Both the position numbers and the translations under genes were made by a program. A DNA stretch of 64,000 nt from Leucoraja erinacea (taxonomy: Eukaryota): assembly GCF_028641065.1 (NCBI RefSeq), contig NC_073402.1, forward strand, positions 20,956,001 through 21,020,000. Reading direction: 5' to 3'. The stretch's first letter is position 1. Each line of letters opens with the position of its first letter. Below are positions 1,499 through 61,872 of this stretch, piece after piece. The notes beneath the pieces are model-generated. The model was given only the letters and a program-made list of their open reading frames with translations. It ran no database searches and was not told where the DNA came from.

Positions 1499-1689
1499 GG
1501 AAGGAGCGGCAGGTGCTGGTATAAACCGAAGATGGGCACAAAATGCTGGAGTAACTCAGCGTGACAGACAGCATCTCTGGAGAGGAGTGGGTGACGTTTC
1601 GGGTCGAAGACTGAAGAAGGGTCTCAACCTGAAATGTCACCCATTCCTTCTCTCCAGAGATGCTGCATGCAGCATTTTGTGTCTATCTT
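1499..1689. mobile_element. Fold-back Penelope-derived element with 16-bp TSD
   Basis: Inverted arms around a ctgaagaagggtctcaacctgaaatgtc core. Flanking direct repeat AGGTGGGAAAGTGGTA at 1483-1498 and 1690-1705. Confidence 0.75.
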
Positions 1690-7915: not shown

Positions 7916-8074
7916 GTGAATGGGTGTGTCATTCTGGACGGAATCTCTTTTGGCAGTGTCCTTTTTACAGATCTTAGCTGATTCAAAACTTGAGTTGGTC
8001 AATATCAAAATTAACTTCTGCCATTGGAATCACACACAGATTAATTGGAATCAGCGAATTGAACAGGAGAGCTG

Positions 8075-8770: not shown

Positions 8771-8938
8771 CTGAGGAAGCCTCTGGGGTTTCAGAGAAAA
8801 TGCTGTACTCTGGTGTCAAGAAAATCTGAAATGCTGCCAGGAATAGCCATGCTGAGAAAATCTAAACTCGTTCACAGAGCTCTTCTCTGATCCCATATGT
8901 GGTCATTGTATTTCAAGTGAAGTTTTTATTTCACGTAG

Positions 8939-9051
8939 GCCAAAGCAAGCGGGAAGAAATTTCCAAAAGTGGTGTTGACCGTGTCACCGCGGGGAATCAT
9001 TCTACACGACTCCACAAGTAACGAATTAATCGAAAACATCTCCATCTACAG
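8939..9051 (+). CDS. LDLRAP1: LDLRAP1 coding exon 3 (PTB domain)
   Basis: cgtag acceptor, gtacgg donor. 113 bp, AKASGKKFPKVVLTVSPRGIILHDSTSNELIENISIY(R). Phase 0 to 2, matches neighbouring exons. Confidence 0.96.
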
Positions 9052-10101
9052 GTACGGACGGGGCACTTCCATTCAAGCGTGAGACACAAAAATATTGACC
9101 GCACACTGCTGAGAAACTCTGGCTACTTGCCGTTTCTTTTTAAATGGTGTTTTTTGTCATCTTTGAAAAAGGGGCGAGATTACTCAAAGCTGTGTTGATC
9201 TTTTTGTGCAATTAGACGGGTCCAAAATGGCTGCGTTAAAAGCAGTTTATGGAGATTCACGTGCCCAAATCTAGAGGTAATCCTCTTGGTCCTGTCGGAG
9301 AGGGAAGGGACAGGGCTGGAGTAGCTCAGCGGGTCAGGCAGCATCTCGGGTGGGCATGGGTAGGGGTTGGGGAGAGACAAAGCAATTGCTTTTCCTTTGT
9401 TCACAAGCATGTTTGACCTTTCCGATGTTCTTCATGAATGCCGTGTCTTCTGAAAACAAAATAAGGAGAAACTGTGTATTCATGAACTAATTGCAGCTTT
9501 CAAAATGGTTTGAACAGCATTTTCAGCAAAGTTCTAAGTGCATTGAAATGCCCAAAAGGCTAATTTCACGAATGAATAGCTGTTGTCAACTTGAATAGCC
9601 GTGTCTTTTACCTGACTACACTAAACTGTCTGACTGACGAGATTCCACCACCTTCTTCAGACAGCTTCTGGCAGACAAATCTGAGGTTTTATTGAATATG
9701 TTTTCATTTTTGTTTCTTGCATCATGGAAAGAACCATTTTGTGCTCATGGAGTCTTTGCTGGTTTTCAGAGCAGTCCTAATGTCCTGCTGATTTTCGCTA
9801 TTACCTATTCACCTCACATTTCAATTCATTCCCTCCCAGATTTTACCACAAATCTGCACACACAAGGTGCAATATACAGTATCCAATAAATCTCCCAACA
9901 GGCGGGGTTTTGGGAGTAGACCGGAGGAGCACCTGGAGGGAATACACGTGGCCATGTTAATTCCGGTTCTTCTACCCACCCTAGTCTGAGTCAGTAAAAC
10001 ACTGCATCGAATACTGGAGTCTTTCTTTTTATTATTCACCGCGTGGCTGGCTTCGGATCCACTCACTGGAGCCCGCAACAGCCTTGTGCCAACAGAACAG
10101 A

Positions 10102-10582
10102 ACCAGACTGATTCCTGGGATGGCAGGACTTTCATATGAAGAAAGACTGGATAGACTCGGCTTGTACTCGCTAGAATTTAGAAGATTGAGGGGGGATCTT
10201 ATAGAAACTTACAAAATTCTTAAGGGGTTGGACAGGCTAGATGCAGGAAGATTGTTCCCGATGTTGGGGAAGTCCAGGACAAGGGGTCACAGTTTAAGAA
10301 TAAGGGGGAAGTCTTTTAGGACCGAGATGAGGAAAACATTTTTCACACAGAGAGTGGTGAATCTGTGGAATTCTCTGCCACAGAAGGTAGTTGAGGCCAG
10401 TTCATTGGCTATATTTAAGAGGGAGTTAGATGTGGCCCTTGTGGCTAAAGGGATCAGGGGGTATGGAGAGAAGGCAGGTACAGGATACTGAGTTGGATGA
10501 TCAGCCATGATCATATTGAATGGCGGTGCAGGCTCGAAGGACCGAATGGCCTACTCCTGCACCTATTTTCTATGTTTCTATG
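10102..10582 (+). mobile_element. CR1 LINE 3' fragment (young)
   Basis: Open ORF2 C-terminus TRLIPGMAGLSYEERLDRLGLYSLEFRRLRGDLIETYKI...; (TTTCTATG)n tail. Confidence 0.92.
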
Positions 10583-10964
10583 AAAGGCAACCGACAAGCC
10601 CCAACAAAATGATCCCCTATTTATACAAATATGATTGCCCAATCACAGATACAGAACAAGCGTCGGTACATTGAAACAAAACAGTAACGTCTTCAGGGGC
10701 CCAGACTTGGTGGCCACAGGTGGGTCACATGATTTGGGTCTCCAGCCCCTGTGATGTCACCACCAGTGAGGCCAAGTTTCACAGTCACCTTGCATTCCAA
10801 AAGCAACCCCATTTCTGCATATTCACAGCCCCAGGGAGAAAGCACCTTGCAAACTCCACAATCACAGCACCAGAGGTCAGAATTTAAACTGAGCCTCTGG
10901 AGCTGTGAGGCAGAAGCTCAACCAACTGTGCCACTGTACAACACTTAACTGGTGTTGCAATTTG

Positions 10965-11592
10965 TGTGGTTCCCCATGTACTTCCCTCTGCAACTGCACG
11001 AGATGTAACACCTGTCCCTAAACCCGCTCCCTCGTCTCTATACAGGGACCCCAGCAACCCTTCCAGGTGAGACAGAAGTTCACGTGCACCTCCTCTAACC
11101 TCGTCTACTGCATCCGATATTCCCAATATGGCCTCCTGATGATCGGTGGTCGTTTCGCCAAACACTTGCACTAGGTCCGCCAAGGCCTACTGCCTCTCTT
11201 GGTTGCTAACCATTACCAGAGTTAGGACACTAGGCAAACTGGAGGAACAGCACCTCGTATTGCGCTTGGGTAGCTCACGACCCAACATTATGAGCGTTGA
11301 ATTCTCCAATTTTAGGTAACCACGTACCCCATACTCCCCACTTTCCTGCATCCCCTTTCCCCTCTCCCCTGTGTCCCACCTAGACTCGCAGCTGTTTCTC
11401 CCCTTCCCCTCCCCTTCCTCTACCTTCACAACTCACAGCTCTTCAATGCTTTTTGTCTTATCATTTCTGGCCTTTGTCCAATCATCGGCTTATCAAAACT
11501 CCCCTCTCAGGTATTCCCCGAATTCCTGCCAGCCTTTGTCCTGCCCCACCCCTTCCAGATTCCTCCCACCCCTCCCACAATTGGCCTGAAGA
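10965..11592 (+). mobile_element. Penelope-like element 3' fragment (decayed GIY-YIG region)
   Basis: ccttccaggtgagacagaagttcacgtgcacctcctctaacctcgtctactgcatccg (F-Q-V-R-Q-K-F-T-C-T-S-S-N-L-V-Y-C-I-R) and KLEEQHL motif, ending at ctgaaga. Confidence 0.75.
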
Positions 11593-11880
11593 ATAATAAT
11601 AATAATAATAATAATATCTTTTATTGTCATTGCACATCAGTGCAACGGGATTTAGTATGCAGCTTCCAACCGATGTAAAAGTAAAATAAATAAATAAGCT
11701 GTGTGACGTGACCATCCGAGGGAGACAGTCCAGGGAGGATCAGGGGCACTCAGCAGGGCCAGTTCAGAGCCGCTATAGCTCTGGGAATAAAGCTGTTTCT
11801 GAGTCTGGAGGTTCAGGCGTAGAAGGCTTTGTAACGTTTGCCGGAGGGAAGTAGTTCGAACAGACCGTTACAGGGGTGTG
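11592..11880 (-). mobile_element. Rex1/L2-like LINE 3' end with (TTA)n tail
   Basis: Minus strand encodes HPCNGLFELLPSGKRYKAF...RLRNSFIPRAI, followed by gacaataaaag and (TTA)n. Confidence 0.7.
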
Positions 11881-12609
11881 TGGAGCCTCGACCCAGTGTC
11901 CCGACCAAGAATTCCATCTCTCCATGTCCTCCAGAGATGTTGGCCCACCCACTGTGTTCCTCCAGCACTTACTGTCCTTTATCCTGTGGGTAATGCCACC
12001 CCGGATGACAGTGTTTGAAAAACAAAATGCCACATCGCTATCTGCTATGGCAGGATGTGGGTCCGTATTTGCAGACCCAACCCTCAACCACGTGTTCATT
12101 GCAAAAAAACATCTTGCCTCTGCTTTTATGCGGCACGTTGGCACTGGTGAAAATTTGATTTAGATTCATGGAGGTCAAAGTTCTGAATTTACTTGAGTTT
12201 GCATTGAATCAAAGAGTGATATAAATGAGCAGCAATCAGTCTGTTGGAGGGGCTCGTTAACTTGAGCAGCATACGTGGGAGGGGGAGAGGTGGGGGGGAA
12301 GGAATTGCCGATGTTTCTAGTCGACACCCGAAAGGTTGACAATCCCTCTCTTCTTTTACCCCCTCCCCACAGATGCTGACAGATGCTGTTAGTTCCTCCA
12401 GCAATGTGCTTGTTGCATCAAATTTCAGCATCAGTAGTCTCTTGTGCCTCTATTGCTACAAATGAGGCCGGTGCAGTGATTCAATTATCATAATCCAAAG
12501 GCAGAAATGAGCACATTTCCACTTTTTCCATCTACCTCCAACCCCAGCTACTAAAAACTGCAGAGTTCAGTAAGGTCTTGAGTGATTGTTGCTCATGTTT
12601 TTTCTCAGC

Positions 12610-12895
12610 TTTAATTTAGTTTAGAGATACAGCACGGAAACAGGCCCTTTGTCCCACCGAGTCTGCACCGACCAGCGATCCCAGCACATTATCCTACACA
12701 CACTAGGGACAATTTAGACTTATTCCATGCCAATGAACCTACAAACCTGTACGTCTTTGGAGTGGGGGAGGAAACCGAAGATCTCGTGCAGTCACGGGGA
12801 GAACTCCATACAGACAGCACCCGTAGTGGGGATCGAACCCGGGTCTCTGGTGCTGCAATTGCTGTAAAGCCGCAACTCTACCGCTATGCCACCAG
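12610..12895 (-). mobile_element. HE1/V-SINE-like SINE
   Basis: tttagtttagagatacagcacggaaacaggccc tail, V-domain, gatcgaaccc (B box on minus strand). Confidence 0.85.
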
Positions 12896-13281
12896 TACGC
12901 CCATCTTTCTTAGCCTGTTCACATTTATTCTATTTTGATCACTCTTTTGAGAAAATATATATGTTACCTCCTCTGAACCTATGTCCTCTTATTCTATTCA
13001 AGCACCTTCTGTATCATTTGCAATTTTTCTTTTGTCTTCCAATTACATCATTCTGCAAGCTCATTTAGACATTGTTCTTCCATCTGAATAGCTGTGGAGG
13101 CCAAGTCGGTGGATTTAAGGCAGAGATAAATAGATTCTTGAATAGTACAGGTGTTGGAGGTGATGGTGAGAAGGCAGGAGAATGGGGTTAGGAGGGAGAG
13201 ATAGTTCAGCCATGATTGAATGGCAGAGCAGACTTGATGGGCTGAATGGCCTAATTCTGCTCCAAACACTTGTGATCTTAT

Positions 13282-13463
13282 GGTACACAAAAATGCTGGA
13301 GAAACTCAGCGGGTGCAGCAGCATCTATGGAGCGAAGGAGATAGGCAACGTTTCGGCCCGAAACGTTGCCTATCTCCTTCGCTCCATAGATGCTGCTGCA
13401 CCCGCTGAGTTTCTCCAGCATTTTTGTGTACCTTCGATTTTCCAGCATCTGCAGTTCCTTCTT
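13282..13463. mobile_element. Perfect 151-bp fold-back Penelope-derived element with 19-bp TSD
   Basis: 74-bp arms 13282-13355 / 13359-13432. Direct repeat AAACACTTGTGATCTTATG at 13264-13282 and 13464-13482. Confidence 0.9.
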
Positions 13464-14818
13464 AAACACTTGTGATCTTATGATCTTTTCAGATGAGGTG
13501 ACCCATCGAACCTTTAAAGTGGACCCGAGTGATCCCCTTGCTATGTTTGGAGGGAGAAAAACAGAAAAGCTGGTCTGACAGTATTAGAGAAACAGGGAAT
13601 GTTTCAGAATTGGGACCCTTCGCAAGATCTAAGAAAACGAGAAACTTGTTAGTCTGGGTAACAGTGGTGGGTGGATCAAAGGAAGCTTCTCCGATCGAGT
13701 GATGTTGCAGGTGGGATCAGATTGAGCTGCTATGGCTGTGCAGTTTGTTGCTATTATTGGCTTAGCTTACTGGGACATACCCAGACTATACAAAGAAAGG
13801 AAAAGAAAATACAATAGCAGGCAAAGATAGTTCTTGTATAGACAAGGAGAAAGAGCATACTTGATGATTTAAAAAAAGACACCAAATGCTGGAGTAACTC
13901 AGAGGATCAGGCAACATCCCTGGAGAACATGAGTAGGTGACGTTTCCATGTTCTATCACCTTCCGTCTCCTATCCATGTTCTCTGGAGATGCTGCCTGGC
14001 CCACTGAGTTACTCCAGCACTTTGTCTTTTTTTTTTTTTGGTGTTGTTGTAAACCAGCATCTGCAGTTCCTTGGTTCTACAAACTTGATGCTGCTGTGTT
14101 TTCTACAATGGTGACTACACTGCGATACTGTTTTGTTGAGAAGGACTTTAGGATATCATGAGAGGCACTAAATAAATGCAGCTTCTCTGTAGATCATAAG
14201 GGAACATTTACCCCATACATTTTTGTCATATTGGCAGAGTCACGGGTCACCTGAAACGTGGGCCTTCAGTTGATGAAAGTGGAGAACATTTTATCAAAAT
14301 ATCCACAGGTGCTGCAATCCAGATCCATGCATCTCATCCCCTCTCTTATATTTCCCAGCAAGTTTCATCCCTCTGCCTGCTCTTCCCACCGCCAACAGCT
14401 CTGATCATCACCCCGTTCCGCTCTTGCCCACCCCTAGCCCCCATTCCCGCCAAGTCAGCTTTCCCTCATAAATCGACTTCCAATGCAAAGAACGTGGTGT
14501 TCACGTTGCCAGGGAGCTGCCCTGAATGAGTTGGATAACTTGGTAACATGCAATAGATAATTGATTGTGGGCTAAGGGCTCAGTTTGGTATGAGAGGATG
14601 TTTGGTGACCCGCACATTGCAAACCAAGACATGATTCCTTTATAGACACAACATGCTGGAGTAACTCAGTGGGACAGTCAGCATCCACGAAGCGAAGGAA
14701 TGGGTGACTTTTCCTGCACATGATTCCCTTCTCATTCACTTTTCTTTTCACTTGTTGTTTTATTGTTTCTTAAATTTGCCTTCTAACCCTTTTTCTTAAA
14801 CATGTTTTTAAAATCTAG

Positions 14819-14933
14819 GATATCCTATTGTACGGCAGACAAAGTACATGATAAAGTTTTTGCCTACATTGCTCAGAGCCAGTTGAACGAGACATTGGAA
14901 TGCCATGCCTTCCTGTGCACAAAGAAAAAGCTG
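14819..14933 (+). CDS. LDLRAP1: LDLRAP1 coding exon 4 (PTB domain)
   Basis: tctag acceptor, gtgagt donor. 115 bp, (R)ISYCTADKVHDKVFAYIAQSQLNETLECHAFLCTKKKL. Confidence 0.97.
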
Positions 14934-15009
14934 GTGAGTTCTTGTTTCCTCATTGATGACCCTTCCTCTTTTCTTTCATGTTTGCTCCTGTTTATAAGTA
15001 TTCACACTT

Positions 15010-15332
15010 TTTAGTTTTGTTTAGAGATACATCGTGTGTACAGGCCCTTTGGGTCACTGGGTCTGCACCGACCAGCGATCCCGGCACATTAACACTATCC
15101 TACACACGTTAGGGACAATTTACACTTATGCAACGTACACACACCCAAGCCAATTAACCTACAAACCTGTACGTCTTTGGAGCGTGGGAGGAAACTGAAG
15201 ATCTCGGTGAAAACCCACACAGTCACGGGGAGAACGTACAAACTCCGTACAGGCAGCACCCATACTCTGGATCGAACCCGGGTCTCCAGAGCTGTAAGGC
15301 AGCAACTCTACCGCTGCGCCACTGTGCCACCC
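15010..15332 (-). mobile_element. HE1/V-SINE-like SINE
   Basis: Full head, V-domain and tail on the minus strand. Confidence 0.88.
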
Positions 15333-15360
15333 ACAATTCCACCCTAACTAATGGTATATG

Positions 15361-15573
15361 CTAGCCCTTGCTGTCTCCTCCCCTTCCTTAACCCTCGAGC
15401 TGTCTCCTCCCATCCCCCCGCCCTCGGGCTCCTCTTCCTCCCTTTTTCCTTCCTTCTCCCCCCCACCCCCCATCAGTCTGAAGAAGGGTTTCGGCCCGAA
15501 ACGTTGCCTATTTCCTTCGCTCCATAGATGCTGCTGCACCCGCTGAGTTTCTCCAGCATTTTTGTGTACCTTC
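15361..15573 (+). mobile_element. Penelope-derived element with intact hammerhead core, 11-bp TSD
   Basis: AATGGTATATG at 15350-15360 and 15574-15584. Pyrimidine-rich leader, then CTGAAGAAGGGTTTCGGCCCGAAACGTT. Confidence 0.85.
15474..15508 (+). ncRNA. Putative minimal (type I) hammerhead ribozyme motif, representative copy
   Basis: CUGAaGA (15478-15484), extra A, stem II GGGU-UUCG-GCCC, GAAA (15498-15501), palindromic helix III ACGU, cleavage triplet GUU. Stem I is only about 2 bp. Activity not demonstrable from sequence. Confidence 0.6.
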
Positions 15574-16366
15574 AATGGTATATGATATGCAGTTCTAAGC
15601 AATCTCCAGACCCTATCACCCTTCTCCAACACTACTGCAGGTTTGTTTCAAAGGTCACCAGTTGCTGTCCAAGCTGGTAGTCTCTGTTGTGATAGAGCTA
15701 AGAATAATACTGTTGAGAAAAAAAAGCTTAAAATAAATCTTCTCTGAATGTCTGTGTTTCCTGGAGATTCAGTTCCATAGCAGAGTATTTTGTTTGATTT
15801 TTAAAAAGCCTGAATTGTGTCGAATGTCTTAAGGACAGACACCACATTGTTATCTGGAGAAGATCCCTCGAGACCAGATCAATCTCTGTGCTTGCCACTA
15901 ATAAACCTTTCAAAGTGTGTCAGTAAAGAGAATAGCAGATGCTGACATTAGAAGCAAAAACATCTCCCAAATGCAACTGAGGATGTGCCATAACGTTTGA
16001 AATGTTTGCCTTTCTAGGTTCTAAGGTTATTTATAGTCGGGTTCTGTTTTCTCTGAAGCGCAAACCTGGTGAAATGATGAAACAAATCATTTTGTCTTTC
16101 ATTTTAGTGTCTCATTGCATCACCAATCAACAATTACATTTAGTTTCATCTCGGGTTAAGATCTGACATTTTCTCTGTAATCTAAAACTCTGGGTTGTTT
16201 TGAGTGCGGCAGTAAGTAACATTGCTAAATTTAGATCAAGTTGACTGCTCTTTTTGGTTAAACTTGCAAAAAAGCCATGAAAATAAGGAAGAGATTTCTT
16301 TATATCCATTTTGCCTATTCTGGATAGGAATTCTACCTCTCTAAACAATCTGTTGTCTCTTCCTAG

Positions 16367-16439
16367 GCTCAAGCAGTGACATTAACAGTGGCTCAAGCTT
16401 TCAAAATAGCTTTTGAATTCTGGCAAGCAGCCAAAGAAG
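16367..16439 (+). CDS. LDLRAP1: LDLRAP1 coding exon 5 (PTB C-terminal helix)
   Basis: cctag acceptor, gtaggt donor. 73 bp, AQAVTLTVAQAFKIAFEFWQAAKE(E). Confidence 0.97.
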
Positions 16440-16639
16440 GTAGGTTTGCTTTATCAGGGTTAAATCGTGAAAATGAACACTTATTGATCTTCCTATTTAA
16501 CTGCTTCATGCTTGCAACAAAACAGTTTTGAAAAAAACAAGCTGCCCCTTCATTCTGTGTCATCCCTTGTGATAATTGCCACATTTGGAGTATGTTTTGT
16601 TTTGCAGTGTTTCTGCAGATTGCAGCTGCCACAGCCACA

Positions 16640-16915
16640 GCCACTGCCTTGCGGTGCCAAAGACCCGGGTTTGATACTGACCTCGGGTGCTGTCTGTGTG
16701 GAGTGTGCACGTTCTCCCTGTGACTGAGGGGTTCCTCCAGTTTCCTGCCACATCCCAAAGATGTGTGGGTGTATGGGTTAAATGTCCTCTATAAATTAAC
16801 CCCAGTGTATGGAGGATATACAGATGTGAAACAGAACTAGTGCGAACGGGTGATCGGTGATCAGCATGGACTTGTAGCACCTGCTTTCATGCTGTATCTT
16901 TCAATCAATCAAACG
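16640..16915 (+). mobile_element. HE1/V-SINE-like SINE
   Basis: gacccgggtttgatactgac...gtgctgtctgtgtggagtgtgcacgttctccc V-domain; (TCAA)n tail. Confidence 0.8.
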
Positions 16916-18017
16916 CATTTCTGCTTCCTTCATCATGTTTGTAAAAGCCCTCTGGCGGAGTTCGTTCCCCAACACGCTGAGGCTCATGTTACTCTGCCTG
17001 ATGTTGTATGGAAGTAAATATCTGATGCCTCCCATACATGAAGGTTGATGTCTTGCCCATCTCTATCTCTGCCTTTCGAAGCCGGTATGAATAATTTTGA
17101 GTTTGACAAGTAATTCCTCTCTTTGTGAGAGGTGGTTCGTGACTAATTGGAGTAAGAGCCACTAGGCCGCTGATTTTGCCCGAGTCGTGGATCCATGCTT
17201 TGTGTAAAATTAACAGGCCCACAAAAATATTCCCACTCTGCTCCTGCCTGTAATCAGTGAGTAACCACAGCTGATGCAATGCATCTCGTCATCCCTGGGG
17301 CAATGAATCATCTCTTGTCTCGTTAGTTTAAAAAAATACCGATTGTCTTACAATTTCCATTTGCTATCCCGCCCCCCCCCCTCCACCTTCCAAAAAAAAC
17401 AAAAGAGCATCCACGAGGAGAAAGTTTTCATCCTTTAAGTTTTAACATTGACTATATGGTAGCACCTTTAAGGAAACAAAGCATTTGTTCCCTTGCCAGC
17501 TAGCTTGCCTGTTTGTCACAGATTTTAACTTGTTGCTGTTTGTAATTCTTTTCCTCATCTGAAGGTCAGGGTTTAATGATACAGCACTTCATTGATGGGT
17601 TTGTACACTGACCTTGAGCAACAAATGATGGTTCCTTTGTCCGATGTGTTGTTTTAACTTTAATCTGTTTTAGTGGAGAGAATAGAACTGGTTCAATTAG
17701 GTTTTTTTTCCCCTCTTCACTAGTTGGAAAGTCTGGTCGGATCCTTTGAGGTAATGACCTGATGGAGCTGCTTCTGGGTTTCATTGTTTATTTCTTGTTG
17801 TTATTATAATTATAACATTTATATTTGTAATTTTCTAACTATACATTGGCAATTTGTTTAATGTGCCTCATGATAAATTTACCAAGGTATGTTCTTGAGA
17901 ATATAGTGGGTCATGCCATATCACAATGTCTATGATGGGTAAAATAGGTAGTGGTTTATTTTCTATTGTGTCAAGTTTGTGTTATCCTGTACAATTGATC
18001 TCTTGATCTCTTTGCAG

Positions 18018-18110
18018 AGAAAGGGAAAAGAGCAGCGGTTGTGACAGCTGATAGTGGAGCCACTGGGAAACCTTGTTCGGAGAAATCCACCAATAACCAT
18101 TTCAAAACTG
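18018..18110 (+). CDS. LDLRAP1: LDLRAP1 coding exon 6 (variable linker)
   Basis: ttgcag acceptor, gtgagg donor. 93 bp, phase 1-1, (E)KGKRAAVVTADSGATGKPCSEKSTNNHFKT. Weakly conserved sequence but correct position and phase. Confidence 0.88.
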
Positions 18111-18136
18111 GTGAGGCCATTTTACTTCTTGAAGTG

Positions 18137-18722
18137 GTTTAGTTTAGTTTCGAGACACAGCATGGAAACGGGCCCTATGCCCCAAGCTGACCGTTGATCA
18201 CCCATCCATGTTTGGGGTGGCGCAACGGTAGAGTTGCTGCCTTACAGCACCAGAGACTCGGGTTTGATCCCGACTGTGTGCTGTCTGTACGGAGCTTGAA
18301 TGTTCTACCTGGGACCACGTGGATTTTCTCCAGGGGCTCCAGTTTCCTCCCACATTCCAAAGACATGTAGGTTGATTAACTCTGCAGATTGTCCCTCGTG
18401 TTGATAGTGCTAGTGTACGGGGTGATCGTTGGCCAGCATGGACTCGGTGGGCCAAAGGGCCTGTTTCCACGTTGTATCTCTAAACTATAAATGAGTTCTA
18501 TAATATCCCACTTTCACATCTTACACACAGGGGGCAATTTCCAGAAGCCAATAAAACTACAAACCTGCACGTCTTTGCGATGTGGGAGAAAACTGGAGGA
18601 AAGCCATGTGATCGCAGGTAGAATGTGCAAACTCTGAGCAAACAGTACCTGTAGTCAGGATTAAACCCCACGGCTCCAGCACTGTGAGGCAGAAGCTCTA
18701 CTGCTGAGCTACTGTGCTGCCC
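18137..18722. mobile_element. Cluster of three oppositely oriented HE1-like SINE pieces
   Basis: Minus-strand tail 18137-18205, full plus copy about 18214-18490, minus copy about 18500-18722. Confidence 0.8.
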
Positions 18723-19512
18723 ATTATCCCATCCCTGCTGCGGTGATCCCATCTGCGAAGTACAAAGGGCCAAAGAGCACAGGGAACCGTGGGCTGAGAA
18801 TGTTGCTTGGAGACGGTGCTGAGATGTGTAGCTCCTATTTTGCCCTTTGCTTCCCGTCCTCCTTGCATGAAACTCCACAATCTAGTGGCAAAGCGGTGCC
18901 GTTTGTGGTCTTCACCGCATGATTGTCCTACTTTCTCTGGCGTGGAAGCATAATTGCAACTTATGAAAGATGCTTTGGAGCACCGGAAGTCATAATACTT
19001 TGAAGTTGCGCTCCACAGCACAGGAAATGACACTGCTTTTGCGGATTTGAACCTGAATTTTGGATCCTCCTGGAAAAGGATGAATTGGACCAGATTTATT
19101 TCAATACCTTTATTTTAACTATGTAGTTTAACTCAAAAGTTTTTTCTCAAAAAAATAAATCTGTTTTGTGCACTCCATGTGGTGCTTCTGTGTCTTTGAG
19201 TTGCTCAAGGAATAGACTTCATTGAGGGGCTGTTTCTTGAAGATATTGCTCCTTAGGCAGATGTCTTTGAGTAAAACTCATCCTGTTCATAACCATCGAA
19301 CTGGGTAGATACTGGGCTGATTGAGGGAGGTGTGAATTATTTTTGCACACAATTAATTTAAACTTTGGATGTGAAAATGTTCTTGTCCATGGTTGAGCTG
19401 CTTTGCGGCAATGTTCACTGTTGCATTCTCTGTCGGGCAATCTTTCCAAGGTGGGGAAGGGAACTAGGGAAATCAGCGTCGAGATGCTGTACACAGTCTT
19501 ATTCCTGTTGTG

Positions 19513-19699
19513 GGTACACAAAAATGCTGGAGAAACTCAGCGGGTGCAGCAGCATCTACGGAGCGAAGGAAATAGGCAACGTTTCGGCCCGAAACGTTGC
19601 CTATTTCCTTCGCTCCATAGATGCTGCTGCACCCGCTGAGTTTCTCCAGCATTTTTGTGTACCTTCGATTTTCCAGCATCTGCAGTTCCTTCTTGAACA
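19513..19699. mobile_element. 151-bp fold-back Penelope-derived element with 14-bp TSD
   Basis: Arms 19513-19663 with one mismatch. CTTATTCCTGTTGT at 19498-19511 and 19700-19713. Confidence 0.9.
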
Positions 19700-19772
19700 C
19701 TTATTCCTGTTGTAGCTGGACTGTTTGGTAATAAATAACAAGTTAATTTTTTTTTTTTAAACTTCCGTACAG

Positions 19773-19885
19773 AAGTAGCGACAGGGGATTTGTTGGATTT
19801 AACAGAAGGTGCAAAACCTGCAAACCATAGAAGAGAGCTGTCCGACGCAGATAAGAAATACTCTGCCAATGACAACCTTGTGTGG
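19773..19885 (+). CDS. LDLRAP1: LDLRAP1 coding exon 7 (clathrin-box region)
   Basis: poly-T tract + tacag acceptor, gtaaga donor. (E)VATGDLLDLTEGAKPANHRRELSDADKKYSANDNLVW, compare human VATGNLLDLEE...VVW. Confidence 0.93.
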
Positions 19886-19944
19886 GTAAGAACATCGGTC
19901 CCGAGCAAGAAAGTGTTGTCATTAATCAACCTATAGTTGTAGAA

Positions 19945-20170
19945 AGGGACACAAAGTTCGAGACTAACTCAGCGTGCCAGGTAGCATCCTTGGAGAACAT
20001 GGATCGAGACCCTTCTTCAGACTCTCGTTTCAGGTCGAGACCCTAATTCAGATCTCAACCCGAAACGTCACCTATGCACGTTCTCCAGAGATGCTGCCTG
20101 ACCTGCTGACTTACTCCAGCACTTTGTGTCCTTTTGTGTATTAACCAGTATCTGAAGTTCATTGTTTCTG
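19945..20170. mobile_element. Older fold-back Penelope-derived element
   Basis: gacacaaag...actcagc arm, cccgaaacgtcacc core, reverse arm. TTGTAGAAA on both flanks. Confidence 0.7.
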
Positions 20171-20834
20171 CAATTGTAGAAATCTTGCTTCATTTTCATA
20201 AAAACATCGATTAAAATCTTTGCACTGGGTTGTATAAGACAGTGAGAAACCAGCTGACTAGGGGTGCGGTGGGTGTAACCCTTGGACATGTTTTCGTTAA
20301 TCCTGATAGTAATCCTCGGTGGTGTAGCGGTAAATCCCCATTTCTGTGGGTGACATATCTGCAGGATTCATATGATCCTGAAGCAGTAACAGAAGGGAAA
20401 AGTTTTAACCCAGTGAACAAACATGTGGATTGTAAATGGGGTGGAATTCTCAGCAGTTGGCACTTGAGAACCAGCTTGCTGAGATTTATGGAGGCAAATT
20501 AAATAAGACAAGCTGCTCCCAAGGGCAGATTAGCATTTATAATGTAACATGATGGTCATGAAGTTCCTGCTTTAAGAGTTTCACTCGGAGCAGCTAGTTT
20601 TCCCAGACCAGGGGATACATCATGGGTTAAGTGAGAAGAGTAAAGTGTTGTTGGGGGTGGGGGGGGAGGGAGGGCGGGAGGGGGGAGGGGGAAGAATTTG
20701 AGGTATGGGAGCGTTTATGTTGTCTGCCCACAGAGCCTCCACCATCACTGCAGTCTGCTCTCATGTACTCCACGCCTGCCTGTTGATCGGTTTGGCTTTT
20801 TGTTGGATACTCCCACCCATCCTGCACCTTAGAC

Positions 20835-21135
20835 GTTAGAGATACAGCGCGGAAACAGGCCCTTTGACCCACCGAGTCCACGCCGACCAGCGATACGCTA
20901 GATTTATCCTCCACACTAGGGCCAATTTTCAATTCTACCAAAGCCAATTAGCCTGCAAACCTGTACATCTTTGGGGTGTGGGTGGAACCCGGAGCACCCG
21001 GAGAAAACCCACACGGTCACAGGAAGAACTTACAAATTCTGGACAAACTCTGTACAGATAGCACTGGAAGTCAGGATCGAACCGGGGTCTCTGGCGCTGT
21101 AAGGCAGCAACTCTACCAGTGCAGCACAATGTTGT
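20835..21135 (-). mobile_element. HE1/V-SINE-like SINE
   Basis: Tail, V-domain and ggatcgaacc (B box, minus strand). Confidence 0.85.
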
Positions 21136-21639
21136 CCCTGCCATTATAACACAGCTGCGTACGTATCCAAACCCTTATCCCCCAGGGTGACTGTGTGCCC
21201 AGTTTACACATTGTCCCTGAAATTGCCGGCCACTTCCTTCTTTATTATTTCCTCTCCCGCACACGCTGCCACGTCCCACAATTTGTGCGGTGTTGCTAAC
21301 CCTCCTAGTTTAAATGTGGACCATTATTTGACACAAAATGCTGGAGTAACTCAACGGGGCAACAGCATCTATGGACAAAATGGATAGGTGATGTTTCGGG
21401 TCGGGATCCTTCAGTGGTGGGGGAGGAAAAACTGGAAGGGAAAAGAGGCAGGACAAATCAAAGCTGACATCAGATGACCTCTGGGGAAGGGGTTCCTGGA
21501 TAGGCAGGTTGTTGGATTGTACCCTTCTCCAGTTACTCTAACATTTTGTGTCTATCTTTGGTATCAACCAGCATCAGCAGTTTCTGTTCCATTAGTTGAA
21601 TAGATTGGTATTAAAATGATATTTTCATTATATTTTCAG

Positions 21640-21674
21640 GAAATAAACGATGATTTGGATGAAGCCTTTGCAAG
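21640..21674 (+). CDS. LDLRAP1: LDLRAP1 coding exon 8 (AP-2 beta2-binding motif, first half)
   Basis: ttttcag acceptor, gtaaaa donor. 35 bp, EINDDLDEAFA(R), compare human ELDDGLDEAFSR. Confidence 0.95.
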
Positions 21675-22702
21675 GTAAAACTGAGTTTGTTCCCTTTTGC
21701 TGTTTAAAATGTCTACCCTATGTGTAAATTGTCCCGCTGGGCAGCACAGAATGACCAAAATGATCTTGCCATGCGCCCATCTCATCTCTCCTTTTGAATT
21801 TTCCAAGCTGCAATTGGGACAGCTTTAACTCGGCTACAGGTAATTGCTGTGAATGCATGCGTTGAAACTCTCAGCCAACCAACCCTGCATCACTTCATCT
21901 CTGCACGGAGTGTAACGACAAATGTACGCACCAGAATTCCGGTTCACTTGACTCGGGTTTCACCCTGTTGAGTTTAATTGCCTGTTGCCAATCAGACTAG
22001 GGGGGTCATGTTGTGCAGAGAGAATGTGGTACATTTTTTTGACTAATTATTTTGCGCACAAAATCCTCCTCACCACCACGTCATTCATTTTGGATTTGGG
22101 AATGCATCAAGCATGAGTTTGCTTCTTTTGCCTGAAAATATGTCATTAGTAAATCTAGAGCTAAATAAAATAAAATTATAATGATAATAAAATGATATCG
22201 CCAGTATCGATAGTAACTAAAATGTGAACGCAAGTTCCTGACATATGGACCTGCTTATTTCTGTTGATTTGTTTTACTGAGTGTTTTCAGTGTCTGCGGA
22301 GGGCAAAGCAAAGCTAGTGTTACACAGCAGTGAACTTCCATCAGTGTTTGGATTTCCAGTGTCTGCAGCATTTTGGAATTAATGATAGCAATCTAAATCA
22401 TCGTTGTTTGGGGGAGGATGTTGAAAAGTGTACAGTTGCCAAATTCGGATGACTTTTGTGTTCCTTGGCTGTTAAATTGCAATTCTTGCACGTTAATTAT
22501 TTTTAGTTAAAGAACAGTGAACTAAGAACAGCGGCCATGCAATAACTGTGTATCTGTTAAGTAGTGAAAGGAGCCTTTGCTTGTGCAGTAATTGTAGTGT
22601 AACAACATTATGGAAGTATTTAGCAGCAGAGGGAGCAGGCAAGTTAGATTTTAAAATGCAAACAGAAGTAACTGGGTACAATGTTGATCACTCTTTTCCA
22701 TA

Positions 22703-25000: not shown

Positions 25001-25519
25001 TATTAACCAATTATAAAATGCCTTTTTACAATAATTATTCTCACTAAATGAACAAGCATGTTAATTCCACTTGGCATTTGGATTATTCCAAATGCCAAGT
25101 GACTAAAGTAGCACAGATTCTCACTTGGTAATTATTTTTGTAACCTTTCAGGTGTAACCTTATTAAGATGTTCGGAAAAGTAAGAAGAAAAATACTGCAG
25201 ATGCTGGAAATCTGAAAATAAACAAAGTAGCAAGTGCTGGAAACACTCAGCAGGTCAGGCGGTATCCATGGAAAGAGACATGTTCATGGTTTCAGGTGAC
25301 GGCTTCTGTCTCGTGACTTGGGTCTGCATTGTATCAGCTCAATGATGAGACTTTCAATGGAGTTCTTCGTTCATTCTGGCTTGCTTCCCTTCTACACCTC
25401 CCATGACTACTTTTTGTACATTTCTCACATCTTTGCTCTTACCCCTTGTCCTCATGAACAGAGCAATGATTAATTTTCACTGCTTCACAATTTCCACCCC
25501 ACAAGCCTCTTCATCAACT

Positions 25520-25990
25520 GATCGTCCCTGGCGGTTTCTGCCACCTTTCCACGGGAAGGCACAACACTGCCCTGCCTTTCAGCAATCTGACGCTTTGACT
25601 GGCTGCAATTCAACCAAAGTTCCCGTGCAACCACAGGAGATACAGAACCTTTTCCCTCTTGCCTCCCCATCATCCAGGGATGCAAACAGCCCTTCCAGGT
25701 GAAGCAACAACTCACTTCCCCTCCAATCTAGTCTATTTCATTCATCAAAACATGATATCCTTGTCAGTGGAGGCTCCGAAGGTACAATGTGGCGCACCTG
25801 TGCTCAGTGTAAATGGATAACCCTGAGCTTCCTATTTGCCTACCACTTTAATTTTCATTCCTGCTCCCATTGATTTGTTTGCCTTTGGCCTCTTGTACAA
25901 CTGTAGCAAAGCCCAACATAAGCCTGAGGAACTGCACCTCAACTTTCATCTTCATTCTGGTGTCAATATTGAGTTCTGCAACTTTGGATA
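25520..25990 (+). mobile_element. Decayed Penelope-like fragment
   Basis: aaacagcccttccaggtgaagcaa and aagcctgaggaactgcacctc resemble the GIY-YIG region of the other copies. Confidence 0.55.
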
Positions 25991-25995
25991 ACTTA

Positions 25996-32700: not shown

Positions 32701-33335
32701 TTACACCCAACTTCACAAGATGAAAGAAAGACACAAAGTGCTGGAGTAACCCAGAGGGTCGGGCAGCATCTCTGGAGAAAAAGGACGGGCAATGTTTTGG
32801 GTTGGGATCCTTCTTCTGAAGAAGGATTCTGACCCGAAGCGGCATCCATCCATGTTCTCCAGAGATGCTGCCTGACCCATTGAGTTACTCCAGCACTTTG
32901 TGTCTTTCTTTGGTATAAACCAGCTTCTGCCTCAATTTTAAAGGACGCCCCCATTAGCTTGTAACTATGTCCCTTTATTTGAGAATGATCATCTGGATCT
33001 AGTCTATGCCCAAGATTGTCACCGAATAGGTGGATGGTGAAAAGTTCCAGACAAATTATGCAACTGTTGTCTTTATATTGTGAAATCGGAAGTTTACATC
33101 AGTACGTTTGATGTTGAGTAGCACAAAAAAAAGTCACAGCAAGTTGGTTTCATTTACGTTTTCCTGAGTTTCATTTTCTTGATACCGAAAGTGCAGAAAA
33201 ACACAGTGCAAATGACGATGTGTTTTCTTGAAGCAATGTAATTTGTGCCTTGTCTGGTGAATGTTTTTTTTTAATGGCATTGAAAACAAGTTGAAAAGTT
33301 TGAAGCTATGAGGCAGCAAAATTAGCTGGCATTTA

Positions 33336-33383: not shown

Positions 33384-34022
33384 GCAGTTACAGAGCCAGA
33401 GACAGTAGCCAGGTCTTGCCTTTTGCTGCATTTTAGTTAAACGAAAAAAAAAGAAATCGACAGACAGAAGATAAGACGAACGATCGCATGGAACAGATTT
33501 ATTTATTTGGTGCATCTCGGGGCTTGAGAGGATGCCCTGACATTTGAGAGGATGCAGAGGTAGTTATTGGTGTTTTCTTCTGAGAGATTGAGCTGTTCTG
33601 CTGATGGCTTTGCCATCAAATGGAATGACAGCAAATGCTGCCTTTTCCTCAAATGGACGTAAAGTGCTGGAGTAGCTCAACGAGTCGGCATCTCCGGAGA
33701 AAATGGATGTGAACTGAAGAACGTGGTCGTGTATTGTCTTTCCGCTGGCTGGTTAGCAGGCAACACAAGCATTTTCACTGTACCTCGGTACACGTGGCAA
33801 TAAACAAAACCGCCGCCATTGCTGGAGTGAGGCTGCGTACAAACTGGAGGAACAGCACCTCGTTCGTATTCAGCTGGGGTAGCTTACACCCTGACGGTAG
33901 GAACATTAAATTCTCCACTTTTCGGTAACCTCCAACAACCTCCCTCCCCCCCTTTCTCCCCCATACCCTCCCCCTCCCATGTGCCCAACTAGGACGTGCC
34001 TATTTCTCCCCTCCCCCCCCCC

Positions 34023-34650
34023 CAGTCAATATGCTCTCTACTGTACACCTGTAGAAATTCAAGAGAATCCTCTCTGACATACCAAAGCTCCATAATCTTC
34101 TCAGGAAGCAGAGGCGTTGATGTGCTTTCTTTATAATCAGTGTGCTGGGCCCAGGAAAGATCTTTGGAAATATGCATGCCCAGGAATTTGAAGTTTTTGA
34201 CTCTCTCCACCATATAACCAGGATTGTGGGTCCTTGGTCTTCCTCTTCCAAAGTCCACGATCAGTTCATTGGTCTGCATAAGATGGAACTGCAGATGCTG
34301 GTTTAAACCGAAGATAGACACAAAAACCTGGAGTAACTCAGCAGGACAGGCAGCATCTCTGGAGAGAAGGAATGGGTGACGTTTCGGATCGAGTCCCTTC
34401 TTCAGTTCATTGGTCTCACTGATACTGAGAGCCAGGTTGTTGTGCTGGCACCATTTGGTCAGTCGATCAATCTCACCTCTATACTCTGACTCATCACCAA
34501 TTGGTCCAACAACGGTGTTGGCATCGGCGAACTTGAAGATGGAGTTTGCACTGTGTCTGGCAACACAGTCATGGGTATAGAGTGAGTAGAGCAGGGGGCT
34601 GAGCACACAGCCTTGAGGTGCTCCCGTACTGATTGTTATTGAAGAAGAAA
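34023..34650 (-). mobile_element. Rex1/Babar-type LINE RT fragment, interrupted by a Penelope-derived element
   Basis: STGAPQGCVLSPLLYSLYTHDCVA...KFAD RT motifs. Insert 34276-34401 flanked by TCAGTTCATTGGTCT (34261-34275 and 34402-34416). Confidence 0.88.
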
Positions 34651-44477: not shown

Positions 44478-45579
44478 GTATATGTATGAATATTGCCTAA
44501 CTTTAAGTAACCCTTGCTTTCCCTTTATCTCCAACCCTCCCCCTTCCTAGTTTACCGACCAGTCTGACGGTCCCCTTCATTAAATGTTATCTCTGTATTC
44601 TTTGCTGTCACCTTCTTCCAGCTAACAATGATCTATTCTACATTTTCCTTGAACTTCCTCCCCTTTCATGTCTCATTTTTACACTTGCACTTCCTTATCT
44701 CTGCGTCTGCCTCTCCCCTGACTCTCAGTCTGAAGAAGGGTCTCGACCCAAAATGTCACCCATTCCTTCTTTCCAGAGATGCTGCCTGTTCCGCTGAGTT
44801 ACTCCAGCATTTTGTGTCTATCTTATATGTGAGTATCTATTTCTTTATCTATACACACTCACACTGAACTTTTTTTTCTCGTTTATTATATTGCTTACAG
44901 AGTTTACATATTCTGTTGTGCTGCTGCAAGTAAGAATGTCATTGCACTATCTGGGACCTGTGACAATAAAGCACTTGGCTCTTGAGAATGGAAATCTGTC
45001 ACTCGGATTTCTGTTAACCTGTGAGGTGCCTTTAAAATTACAGAAGGGCGGGTCAGTTACTAGAGGTGAGATCACATGATAAGCATGTGTCAGCTGAGCA
45101 GTGAAAAGTGCTTGTGGAATTGGAAGGGTTGCACCCTGAAGACAGCATGGAGCCAGCATTAGTGGTCATTGGTAGGACACAGGTAAAACAGGAGCAACAC
45201 CCCCAAATATAATACACAATTAAGTTCCTTTTATGTAGATTTTAAAAAATGTTTCAAAAACGTTTTGATGCAAGGAAAATAAATCTCTTTTTAAAAAGTA
45301 GATGCAAATGTGAAGCACTTGGGACAATGTAGCAGAGATGTAACTCAATCCAAGAATTATAATCAGGAGTGAATCTGCTTTATGTTCAATAAGATCATGG
45401 CTGGTCTTTTAGCTCTGAAGCACTTTTCGTTGTTTCATTAAATATCCAAGCATTGATCAAGCTGGTTTTCTGTAAGGGTGAATCTTTACTTCTGTTCCCC
45501 ACCACTTAATCCCCTCCGACCACCACTTGTTAATGACCCCGACTAATTACCCCCCCTTCCCCACCCACAAACATTAACA

Positions 45580-46092: not shown

Positions 46093-46349
46093 TAATATTT
46101 AAGAAGAAACTGCAGATGCTGGACAATCAAAGGTAGACAAAAATGCTGGAGAAACTCAGCGTATCGCATCGTAGATGCTGCCTCACCCGCTGAGTTTCTC
46201 CAACATTTTTGTCTACCTTCATGTAGAATCAAATCTGAATTCTCCAATTTCAGATAACCTCCCCCTCTATCCCCCATGCCCCATCTGATCTTTCACCTAT
46301 TTCTCCCTTCCTTGCTACTGCTACTTGCTTCCTCCTGTTTTCACAATAG

Positions 46350-47207: not shown

Positions 47208-47472
47208 TGTAAGAATGAACTGCAGTTGCTGGTTTAAATCGAAGGTCGCACAAAATGCTGGAGTAACTCAGCGGGACAGACAGCATCTCTGGAGAGAAGG
47301 AATGGGCAACGTTTCGTGTCGAGACCCTTCTTCAGACTGATGTCAGGGGAGTGGGCGGGACAAGGATAGAATGTAATCGAAGGCAGTAAGACTGGTGGGA
47401 GAACTGGGAAGGGGGAGGGGATGGAGAGAGAGGGATAGTAATGGCTACTTGAAGTTAGAGAAGTCAATTGCT

Positions 47473-47505
<33 letters not shown>

Positions 47506-48250
47506 GGTGGGGCTACCCAAGTGAAATATGAGGTGCTGTTCCTCCAATTTGTGCTGGGACTTACTCTGACAATGGAGGTGGCCCAGGACAGAAAGGTCAG
47601 TGTGGGAATGGGAGGGGGTGTTAAAGTGTTTAGCATCCTGGAGATCAGGTAGGTTAAGGCGGACTGAGCAGAGGTGTTCAGCTAAACGATCGCCGGGCCC
47701 GTGCTTGGTCTCGCTGATGTACAGATGTTGACACCTGGAGCAGCGGATACAGTAGGTGAGGTTGGAGGGAGGTGCAAGGGACAAGTGTTGCATCTCCTGC
47801 GGTTGCAGGGGAAAGTACCTGGGGAGGGGGTGGTTTGGGTGGGAAGGGAACGAGTTGACCAGGGAGTTGCGGAGTGAACGGTCTCTGCGGAAAGCAGAAA
47901 GGGGTGGAGATAGGAAGATGTGGCCAGTAGTGGGATCTCGTTGGAGGTGGTGAAAGTGTTGGAGGATTATATGCTGTATGCGATGACTGCTGGGGTGGAA
48001 GGGGGGACAAGAGGGACTCTGTCCTTGTTGCGAATGGGGGAGCGGGGGAGCAAGAGCGGAGCTGTGGGATATCGAGGAGACCCTAGTGAGAGCCTCATCT
48101 ATAATGGAAGAGGGGAACCCCGTTTCCTAACGAATTAGGACATCTCCGATGACTTAGTATGGAAAACCTCATCCTGGGCGCAGATGCAGTGTAGATGAAG
48201 GAATTGGTTAGTAGGGGATAGAGTCTTTACAGGGAGCAGGGTGGGAAGAA
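47208..48250 (-). mobile_element. Penelope-like element 3' end: GIY-YIG endonuclease remnant plus 3' unit with hammerhead motif
   Basis: Minus strand SNLTYCIRCSRCQHLYISETKHGPGDRLAEHL...HKLEEQHLIFHLGS...DFSNFK*, continuous with CTGAAGAAGGGTCTCGACACGAAACGTT (47335-47308) and the short-repeat body. Confidence 0.88.
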
Positions 48251-51555: not shown

Positions 51556-51571
51556 ATATGTATGTGTGTAT

Positions 51572-52000
51572 ACCGAAGATAGACACAAAGTGCTGGAGTA
51601 ACTCAGCAGGTCAAGCAGCATCTCTGGAGACAGAGAAAAGGTGATGTTCTTGGTTGGAACCTGAAGAGTTCCAATGCGAAACGGCACCTTTTTCTCCAGA
51701 GATGCTGCCTAACTTGCTCAGTTACTCCGGCACTTTGTGTCTATCTTCGGTATAAACCAGCATCTGCAGTTCCTTTTATATATGTGTGTGTGTGTGTCCA
51801 TGTATGTATATGTATAAGAAGGAACTGCAGATGCTGGAAAAATCGAAGGTAGACCAAAATGCTGGAGAAATTCAGCGAGTGAGGCAACATCTATGGAGCG
51901 AAGGAATAGGTGACTTTTCAGGTCCAGACTTCACCAGTCTGAAGAAGGGTCTGGACCCGAAACGTCACCTATTGCTTTGCTCCATAGATGCTGCCTCACC
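51572..52000. mobile_element. Two adjacent fold-back Penelope-derived elements embedded in TG/TA microsatellite
   Basis: Inverted arms 51572-51780 and 51816-52000, with core ctgaagaagggtctggacccgaaacgtcacc. Confidence 0.75.
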
Positions 52001-52461
52001 TTATGTGTATATGTATGTATGTGTGTACATATATTCACAAAACGTTATTGTAGTACTGTTTGCACTCGCTTTGATTTGCTTTACTGAGAATACTTCTGGC
52101 CTGCCACATGCACTTTGTATTTGCCTCCATTCATTACATTCAAATAAATCATAAAATGACTGACCCATCATTCATTGAATAGTGGAACTCCCTTCCTCTA
52201 TAGATGGACTAGTTCAGTTTAATTTGACCCTGGGGCATCCAGACATTATAAACCTTGCGTGGCTTTAATTAAATGTCAAGTTCGATTTCACCTTACAATG
52301 ATCTTTGTTGAAATGTGTGTCAAATTTATACTAGAATATACATTAATAGTATTTTACTGATTTCATCTTTGAAAGATCTTTTGAGATTTGCTTGTCACTA
52401 CAAAGATTGTCGATGGTTAATTGTATCACATTGACAGTGTGGCCATTCCTTCAGTGGTAGT

Positions 52462-60968: not shown

Positions 60969-61439
60969 TGTGTGTGTGTGAAGGCCCAGAGCTGCAGGGG
61001 AGTCAGGGCGAGTTGATGCTGGGCCGACACCTTTATAAAAATACATGATTACCATCTTTTTCTTTACTTGCTTGATAATTATATTTAATGGTAATTAGTG
61101 AGTGCAACCGTGCAATATTTTGTCATATTATTAAATTGAGTATAATATGTTTTATTGTATGGTTATGCACTGGGATGTAACCTATAACCTTGTTTGACAC
61201 TCTTGGGAGACTGGCTCCCCCCCCCAAACAAAACTTGAAATGCTGTCTCCTCCCATCCCCCAGCCTTCGAGCTCCTCCTCCTTTTTCCTTTCTTCCCCAC
61301 GCCCCCCACCCCTCCACCTCCGATCAGCCTGAAGAAGGGTTTCGGCCCGAAACGTTGCCTTTTTCCTTCGCTCCGTAGATGCTGCTGCACCCGCTGAGTT
61401 TCTCCAACTTTTTTGTGTACCTTTGAAATGACGCCCCTG
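60149..61439. mobile_element. Possible hAT-like non-autonomous element (GC-rich, contains TG microsatellite and a nested Penelope-derived insert)
   Basis: Ends CAGGGGTGCCGT and (reverse) CAGGGGCGTCAT. No convincing TSD. Nested insert 61243-61422 has TSD TTGAAATG. Confidence 0.45.
60798..60980. repeat. Compound (TG)n microsatellite
   Basis: Directly visible; explains the HT/VC-repeat ORFs. Confidence 0.95.
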
Positions 61440-61619: not shown

Positions 61620-61872
61620 AAGAAGGAACTGCAGATGCTGGAGAATCGAAGGTTACACAAAGCTGGAGAAACTCAGCGGGTGCAGCAGCATCTATGGAGC
61701 GAAGGAAATGGGCAACGTAATGGGGGGGGGGGAGCCAGTCTCCCAAGAGTGTCTAACAAGGTTATAGGTTACAACCCGTCTGAAGAAGGGTTTCGGCCCG
61801 AAACGTTGCCTATTTCCTTCGCTCCATAGATGCTGCTGCACCCGCTGAGTTTCTCCAGCTTTTTTGTGTAAC
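61620..61872. mobile_element. Fold-back Penelope-derived element with 18-bp TSD and extra spacer
   Basis: CTTGTTTTTCTAATGTTT at 61602-61619 and 61873-61890. Spacer 61722-61777 is the reverse complement of 61172-61225. Confidence 0.88.

Follow-up and report, generated by a model that had tools for sequence, protein, structure and literature searches.

Hammerhead-bearing repeats in a Leucoraja erinacea locus are probably 5'-truncated insertions of a Neptune-type Penelope-like element

Hammerheads have been known in the terminal repeats of Penelope-like elements (PLEs) since 2014, and the ribozyme described here is therefore no surprise in itself. The minimal motifs listed by Cervera and De la Pena (2014, PMC4209133) share with ours the CUGANGA core, an extra base before G10.1-C11.1 and the GAAA, as well as a palindromic 15.2-16.2 without loop 3 and a pyrimidine-rich 5' flank, and they too are mostly single motifs from truncated PLEs. 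According to that account, minimal hammerheads showed no cleavage as monomers and weak cleavage as dimers; the minimal hammerhead of an anole element needed its protein for cleavage (PMC11167929), and one of nine Xenopus dimers was reported to cleave (bioRxiv 10.64898/2026.07.22.740005). The latter work also documents PLEs, as well as retrozymes, for a single chondrichthyan. The literature already describes solo truncated copies, inverted arms and one-sided tails of PLEs, in addition to minimal hammerheads in their terminal repeats. Our literature search, which most subscription papers lay outside, returned no description of a hammerhead PLE family in cartilaginous fish and nothing on twin priming in PLEs. 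For the question of how PLEs form their inverted repeats and one-sided tail, short insertions bounded by target-site duplications (TSDs) provide countable ends and junctions in very large numbers.

We analysed a 64,000-nt stretch of the Leucoraja erinacea genome (the window), for which an original prediction, made by reading the sequence, had proposed a dense family of short repeats carrying a minimal hammerhead. A window-wide search allowing up to three mismatches yielded 16 motif matches, as compared with none in 100 shuffles, and all 10 coordinates named in the original prediction were among them. We then used a profile seeded on nine copies, that is, on the hammerhead core, which detected 58 segments in the window and none in five control sequences. 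These segments correspond to 41 loci, a grouping that fuses a few adjacent insertions, and occupy 5,612 bp, or 8.8% of the window. All core letters are intact in only eight of the 58 segments, and the core together with a full stem II and the CG palindrome in only four (15478, 51939, 61329 and 61780); a relaxed hammerhead descriptor was passed by five segments and by none in 20 shuffles. The hammerhead model search that had been proposed as a check came out negative, with no match to a hammerhead family in Rfam scans of the whole window (E up to 1) or of 15430-15580 (E up to 10). The hammerhead motif family in the window is real.

The interval 15361-15573, singled out in the original prediction, is exactly one insertion, bounded by 11-bp direct repeats at 15350 and 15574 (left and right TSDs, 15350..15360 and 15574..15584, + strand). 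It begins with the pyrimidine-rich 3' UTR part of a PLE pseudo-LTR (15361..15475, +), which starts at approximately the ORF stop codon, aligns, in the copies at 47335(-) and 44730, with the sequence that immediately follows the GIY-YIG stop, and is 94% pyrimidine over its last 35 nt. This is followed by a minimal type I hammerhead (15476..15507, +), matching the consensus in Fig. S3 of PMC4209133, and by a conserved post-ribozyme block with a small hairpin (15508..15573, +), which ends at the short, tail-less 3' end. On the + strand, helix I pairs 15476-77 with 15506-07, and between them lie the core (15478-84), an extra A (15485), stem II (15486-97), GAAA (15498-501) and the ACGU palindrome (15501-04), with the predicted cut after 15505; element positions are numbered hereafter from hammerhead C3 as +1, so that the predicted cut follows +28. 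In the copy at 15478, the core CUGAAGA is followed by the additional A that comes after A9, by stem II (4 bp, closed by a loop of 4 nt) and by GAAA; the ACGU palindrome and GUU are likewise present.

The ACGU palindrome is present in seven of the eight copies with an exact core, and departures from it are mostly due to CpG decay. Helix I consists of only two pairs in all four intact copies, with the third position mismatched in most and one private C-G pair at 61329; a search for a longer helix I recovered only weak, register-shifting pairings. The proposed alternation of U-G and U-A in stem II does exist (U-A in 26 and U-G in 7 of 37 segments), but it is one-sided and, lacking any two-sided change, does not amount to covariation. 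Covariation above shuffles was absent from every helix among 16 aligned copies, whose helices I and II showed nothing but one-sided changes. ViennaRNA assigned stem II a pairing probability of no more than 0.004 in four of the five copies tested, and of 0.5 in the fifth, and folding favoured an inactive form, its purine-rich core being base-paired to pyrimidines 3' of the cut site. Single copies folded freely without a hammerhead, and were no more stable than shuffles. Because helix I has only 2 bp and predicted stem II pairing is low, the activity of the hammerhead is doubtful. RNAalifold recovered only a body-to-tail helix; this 7-bp helix is present in 98% of cells, next to the small hairpin, and from these predictions both may form a landing site for the reverse transcriptase (RT).

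The intact hammerheads at 61329 and 61780 are on the same strand, 451 nt apart, and constitute the only pair able to dimerise in cis; the stretch separating them includes an inverted arm, which would pair with the cut-site region of one or the other. Separately, a pyrimidine tract plus CAG immediately precedes helix I in five of the six copies having upstream sequence (the copies examined included 15438-15477 and the equivalent regions of 2445, 44730, 47335(-) and 61329). This arrangement resembles a splice acceptor, and we identified no spliced copy; in Penelope from Drosophila virilis, an intron ends at helix I (PMC4209133).

To the original prediction, a hammerhead unit adjoining a GIY-YIG ORF remnant at 47208-48250 indicated a Penelope-like element, and this adjacency is real. 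The copy at 47335(-), the longest in the window, includes the 3' UTR, a hammerhead with one stem II mismatch, the downstream block and the tail (47208..47444, -), and extends some 900 nt upstream, through GIY-YIG and linker, to the end of the RT thumb. The upstream portion (47445..48249, -) is a broken PLE ORF remnant with several stops and frameshifts, containing the RT thumb end, a C-x4-C-x2-C linker and the GIY-YIG endonuclease (50% identity to P0001). Four matches to this remnant were found, the 50% identical protein being from Mobula and the other named ones from Hypanus and Rhinoraja; the nearest named relatives of the GIY-YIG ORF are, accordingly, from rays and skates. A second GIY-YIG remnant (10975-11317) is likewise followed by the 3' UTR and a hammerhead (10975..11980, +), the latter split at approximately 11593-11885 by a younger insertion. 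The order ORF, UTR and hammerhead is therefore linked in two copies, 47208-48249(-) and 10975-11980(+), which bears out the Penelope-like linkage, with the hammerhead in a terminal repeat 3' of an RT-GIY-YIG ORF. At two other sites, an inverted terminal arm (-) precedes coding remnants on the + strand: 25189..25985, with an old ORF remnant at 25300-25985 in the classic Penelope arrangement, and 33620..33930, with the end of a GIY-YIG remnant at 33810-33930.

Pfam returned no match on the broken GIY-YIG frames themselves, and their assignment rests on homologs, which carry GIY-YIG and RVT_1 matches below the Pfam cut-off. Both remnants (47335(-) and 10975) contain, before the C-terminal GIY-YIG, the CX2-5CxxC linker that marks Neptune or Nematis (PMC8557442), and homolog P0002 resembles by eye the Neptune rows, DreriNep1, in Figs S1-S2 of the same paper. 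The parent thus appears to be a Neptune-type PLE, its clade being judged from the motif and by eye, with the RT core absent from the window. The window lacks a full-length element, a 5' pseudo-LTR and an intact ORF, and so we infer, rather than observe, that the source element is autonomous.

We mapped the ends of 42 well-scored segments out of the 58 examined. The 3' ends were located at +86..+104 in 12 segments and at +115 or beyond in 25, mostly at +124..+131, with five elsewhere. The gap of about 35 nt between the two ends is the PLE 'tail', which in the anole element lies between two RT start sites (PMC11167929), and single copies use either end, with 15573 and 61422 as examples of the short site. 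The 5' ends are near -915, -600, -230, -117 and -86, with many near the hammerhead, in a series that continues into the coding region. Seven of the 42 segments continue upstream and, by hand count, 28 of the other 35 start at -6..+29 and seven further down, with only one of these 35 starting at the cleavage site. This pile-up at the hammerhead is suggestive only, because short pieces are harder to detect. Copies reach 65-100 nt beyond the cut site, indicating that the template was uncleaved RNA, as it was for anole Poseidon in vitro (PMC11167929). For instance, the single copy at 61243..61422 (+) comprises 3' UTR, the intact hammerhead at 61329 and the short end, with an 8-bp TSD; that at 34276..34401 (-), within a LINE RT remnant, is cut off inside the core and has the tail and a 15-bp TSD; and the copy at 44497..44824 (+) has a long 3' UTR, a CpG-decayed core and the short end.

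We compared the decay of core and flank in the 18 segments that span both. Mismatches affected 21 of 198 non-CpG core positions (10.6%) and 87 of 738 flank positions (11.8%; p=0.71), and 14 of 36 at the two CpG core positions. As there is no excess conservation of the core among copies, the inserted copies are dead and decaying neutrally. Conversely, between four subfamilies the core differs at 0 of 15 positions, versus 25 of 80 others (p=0.009), in a comparison that took in 31 of the 58 segments, left out 27 and used a profile seeded on the core. Excess core conservation, on which the original prediction had staked the motif, is thus seen between subfamilies but not among copies. The invariance between subfamilies indicates that the hammerhead is apparently kept in source elements, though with a core-seeded profile. 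Internal divergence of the subfamilies ranges from approximately 2% to 12%, the youngest being about 2% from its majority.

The insertion at 15361-15573 is located, in sense orientation, in an intron of LDLRAP1, a + strand gene whose exons span about 6520 to 24600, the first exon not being among those found. The frame at 14787-15011 matches LDL receptor adaptor protein chain 3so6_A (E=1.4e-19), and the insertion is flanked by the exons at 14819..14933 (+) and 16367..16439 (+), the latter of which we presume to belong to LDLRAP1 from similarity and exon order. The presence of copies in LDLRAP1 introns was correctly anticipated: 16 loci occur up to 24287, eight sense, two antisense and six two-armed. 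A sense bias among them is not significant (8 vs 2, binomial p ~0.11). These introns also contain near-perfect hairpins of up to 75 bp and -148 kcal/mol (13283-13431, 19513-19663 and four more loci), which account for several sub-threshold Rfam miRNA matches; such matches fall on inverted pairs and on other hairpins. From their predicted structure, the intronic hairpins are possible ADAR or small-RNA substrates.

Two readings would give the short copies a life of their own, or a function in the host. The original prediction favoured a non-autonomous, retrozyme-like family. In a retrozyme scheme, a short unit would be transcribed in tandem, and the hammerhead would release monomers that become circular and are moved in trans by proteins of the PLE. 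The identification of a Penelope-derived minimal type I hammerhead with a palindromic helix III in the original prediction holds, but the retrozyme-like family is not supported. Copy density is certainly high, most copies lack coding sequence, and non-LTR retrozymes, which derive from PLE terminal repeats, are reported in one chondrichthyan genome (bioRxiv 10.64898/2026.07.22.740005). However, none of the 20 tandem-repeat rows in the window is an array of the hammerhead unit, 5' ends are scattered in a truncation series continuous with the ORF, a single end in 35 is at the cut site, and 3' ends are 65-100 nt past it, making a retrozyme very unlikely. These features argue instead for 5' truncation of PLE copies during insertion from an uncleaved RNA template. 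That the host keeps copies because they work as ribozymes or hairpins within introns, perhaps in the regulation of LDLRAP1, could be imagined from the intact sense copy in an LDLRAP1 intron and from the six two-armed loci in this gene, which would form long hairpins. We nonetheless give it hardly any credence, with the core decaying like the flank, and faster at its CpG positions, with no significant orientation bias and with only four of 58 segments intact; there is no sign of host use.

Adjacent segments on opposite strands are arranged head-to-head 13 times and tail-to-tail twice, and in 12 of the 13 head-to-head pairs one arm is long and the other short (p=0.003 versus even odds), the exception being an old pair with an ambiguous end. 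The original prediction had overlooked both these pairs and the two-ended tail pattern. At 13283..13463, a miniature head-to-head insertion with its axis in stem II, a short left arm and a tailed right arm forms a 75-bp perfect hairpin and is flanked by a 19-bp TSD; the insertion at 19512..19699 has the same junction and a 14-bp TSD. Other head-to-head insertions are found at 1499..1689 (left arm tailed, 16-bp TSD), 19946..20173 (complex junction, 9-bp TSD), 46093..46218 (without hammerhead, 11-bp TSD) and 61620..61872 (filler from nearby DNA, intact hammerhead at 61780, 18-bp TSD). Two adjoining ones are inserted in a microsatellite at 51569..52005, with an intact hammerhead at 51939, and an older one, with its axis at the start of the core, is at 32723..32935. 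By eye, we recognised an additional pair at 26760-26912, outside the 12/13 count, with a tail on the left arm only; this arm has a deletion, and the profile missed it.

Direct flanking repeats of 8-19 bp were found at 12 hand-picked loci of the 41, and they are 68% AT, versus 56% in the window; the chance of a flanking repeat of at least 9 is 1% per locus. Short ends frequently have 1-3 nt in common with the TSD, and several ends match the target over 1-5 nt. In addition, the TSDs at 13464 and 61602-61619, from independent insertions, have first five bases equal to the long end of the element, which hints that primer and template pair where the RT starts. Junctions are diverse. The axis at 13283 and 19512 is the natural 7-bp palindrome in stem II, with arms 99-100% complementary, whereas at 32723 and 29391 it is the start of the core, and several junctions contain fillers, deletions or non-palindromic joins (13856, 46870 and 61620). 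The filler at 61724-61777, between the arms of 61620-61872, is a 96% inverted copy of 61172-61225, about 390-450 bp upstream of the target, which suggests templated repair at the junction.

The element comprises, in order, RT, linker, GIY-YIG, 3' UTR and minimal hammerhead, followed by some 65 nt of conserved RNA and an optional tail of about 35 nt. Starting from the directly observed order of parts, two 3' ends, TSDs, arm asymmetry and neutral decay, we consider it likely that several subfamilies of an autonomous Neptune-type PLE gave rise to the repeats as 5'-truncated insertions, through two-site priming and, in the inverted pairs, head-to-head joining. To judge from the TSDs, the endonuclease would nick both target strands 8-19 nt apart and, to judge from the ends, the RT would start at about +95 or +129 from hammerhead C3, on RNA uncut by the ribozyme. 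Reverse transcription would mostly halt in or near the hammerhead. Where both nicked strands act as primers, one per start site, the two cDNAs would be fused head-to-head, in many cases within short parts of the hammerhead that are self-complementary, generating a miniature inverted insertion with one tailed arm. The ribozyme would be maintained in source elements, probably for processing of tandem transcripts as a dimer or with the help of protein.

The main rival to two-site priming is that a single cDNA, folding back at the stem II palindrome and serving as its own template, gives rise to an inverted pair, with the second arm later cut back to the short end by the endonuclease. Self-priming has been proposed for Penelope (PMC3846280), as has endonuclease resolution for the tail (PMC8557442), and fold-back would fit the stem II axis and the nearly complete complementarity of arms at 13283 and 19512. 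Partner arms share four rare alleles in 12 pairs, versus 1.0 expected, a result explained equally by single-cDNA fold-back or by later conversion between arms; two of the 13 pairs have a partner arm that resembles its mate no more closely than the median copy does. Nevertheless, the short site is also used by single copies (15573, 61422), the fillers, deletions and non-palindromic joins at 13856, 46870 and 61620 do not agree with fold-back, and neither do the 1-3 nt often common to short ends and TSDs, so that we regard it as rather unlikely. Short-site single copies, together with the matches of 1-5 nt between ends and TSDs, would favour priming at both ends, without settling the matter. For the youngest subfamily, the 180-bp palindromic unit might alternatively be a MITE-like element copied whole, given that junction and arm asymmetry are the same at 13283 and 19512 and that this subfamily is so close to its majority. 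This appears improbable, with only two such insertions, with different junctions in other pairs, and with a private change that is present in both arms of 13283 and absent from 19512.

The window also contains unrelated repeats. MITE-like elements with long inverted arms occur at 4409-4615, 6865-7301, 25990-26311 and 32472-32703. A tRNA-like SINE at 15045-15330(-), present also at many other sites, lies next to the insertion at 15361-15573, and we take it to resemble the elasmobranch HE1 SINE. LINE RT remnants, presumably CR1/L2-like, were identified at 9985-10491, 33989-34699 (with a Pfam RVT_1 match below cut-off), 35516-35902, 49405-49983 and 57351-57791. A 390-codon open frame at 54446-55618(+) is probably a large exon, with S100P-binding protein at 0.77 as a lead only.

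The value of this locus resides mainly in its unusual density of insertions and in the natural record of PLE integration that they provide; furthermore, the long intronic hairpins may be a sizeable source of double-stranded RNA. Somewhat speculatively, the genomes of rays and skates could contain about a million miniature Neptune insertions, with the head-to-head pairs preserving a record of twin target priming carried out by a PLE dimer, in which the nicked strands prime at separate RT start sites of one uncleaved RNA and the hammerhead palindromes mark the points at which synthesis ends and the two cDNAs are joined. If true, twin priming would explain the inverted pseudo-LTR and one-sided tail of all PLEs, and batoids would be among the richest natural sources of hammerheads.

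Among described minimal hammerheads, that of Acropora Neptune likewise combines a stem II of 4 bp with a loop of 4 nt, whereas helix I, of 2 bp here, has 3-5 bp in most of those listed, with 2 bp listed for Drosophila, Culex and Oikopleura; the Fig. S3 rows compared include no cartilaginous fish (PMC4209133). Four intact motifs in 64 kb, from one window only, would extrapolate to far above the 4,000-9,000 per genome given for coelacanth and Xenopus in that study. Non-LTR retrozymes have the same type I hammerhead, short non-coding copies and kinship with PLE terminal repeats, but those described are tandem, with mostly canonical hammerheads, and expressed as circles (PMC7229834; bioRxiv 10.64898/2026.07.22.740005), none of which is apparent in the window. 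The block after the hammerhead contains 1-nt indels between subfamilies; these break the frame, and a coding role for the block across subfamilies was rejected. For this reason it does not look like the start of the ORF, unlike in Anolis Poseidon PAc, whose ORF starts in stem II (PMC11167929). PAc does share the two internal ends bounding the tail, the uncleaved inserted hammerhead and AT-rich targets, although it starts at non-homologous sites (PMC11167929), whereas in our family the target matches several ends over 1-5 nt. Finally, the Neptune clade as described in PMC8557442 shows the same C-terminal GIY-YIG, CX2-5CxxC linker and 5' truncation, and the same adjacent inverted copy and one-ended tail of 30-40 bp, from which our family differs in that most insertions are reduced to the terminal repeat alone.
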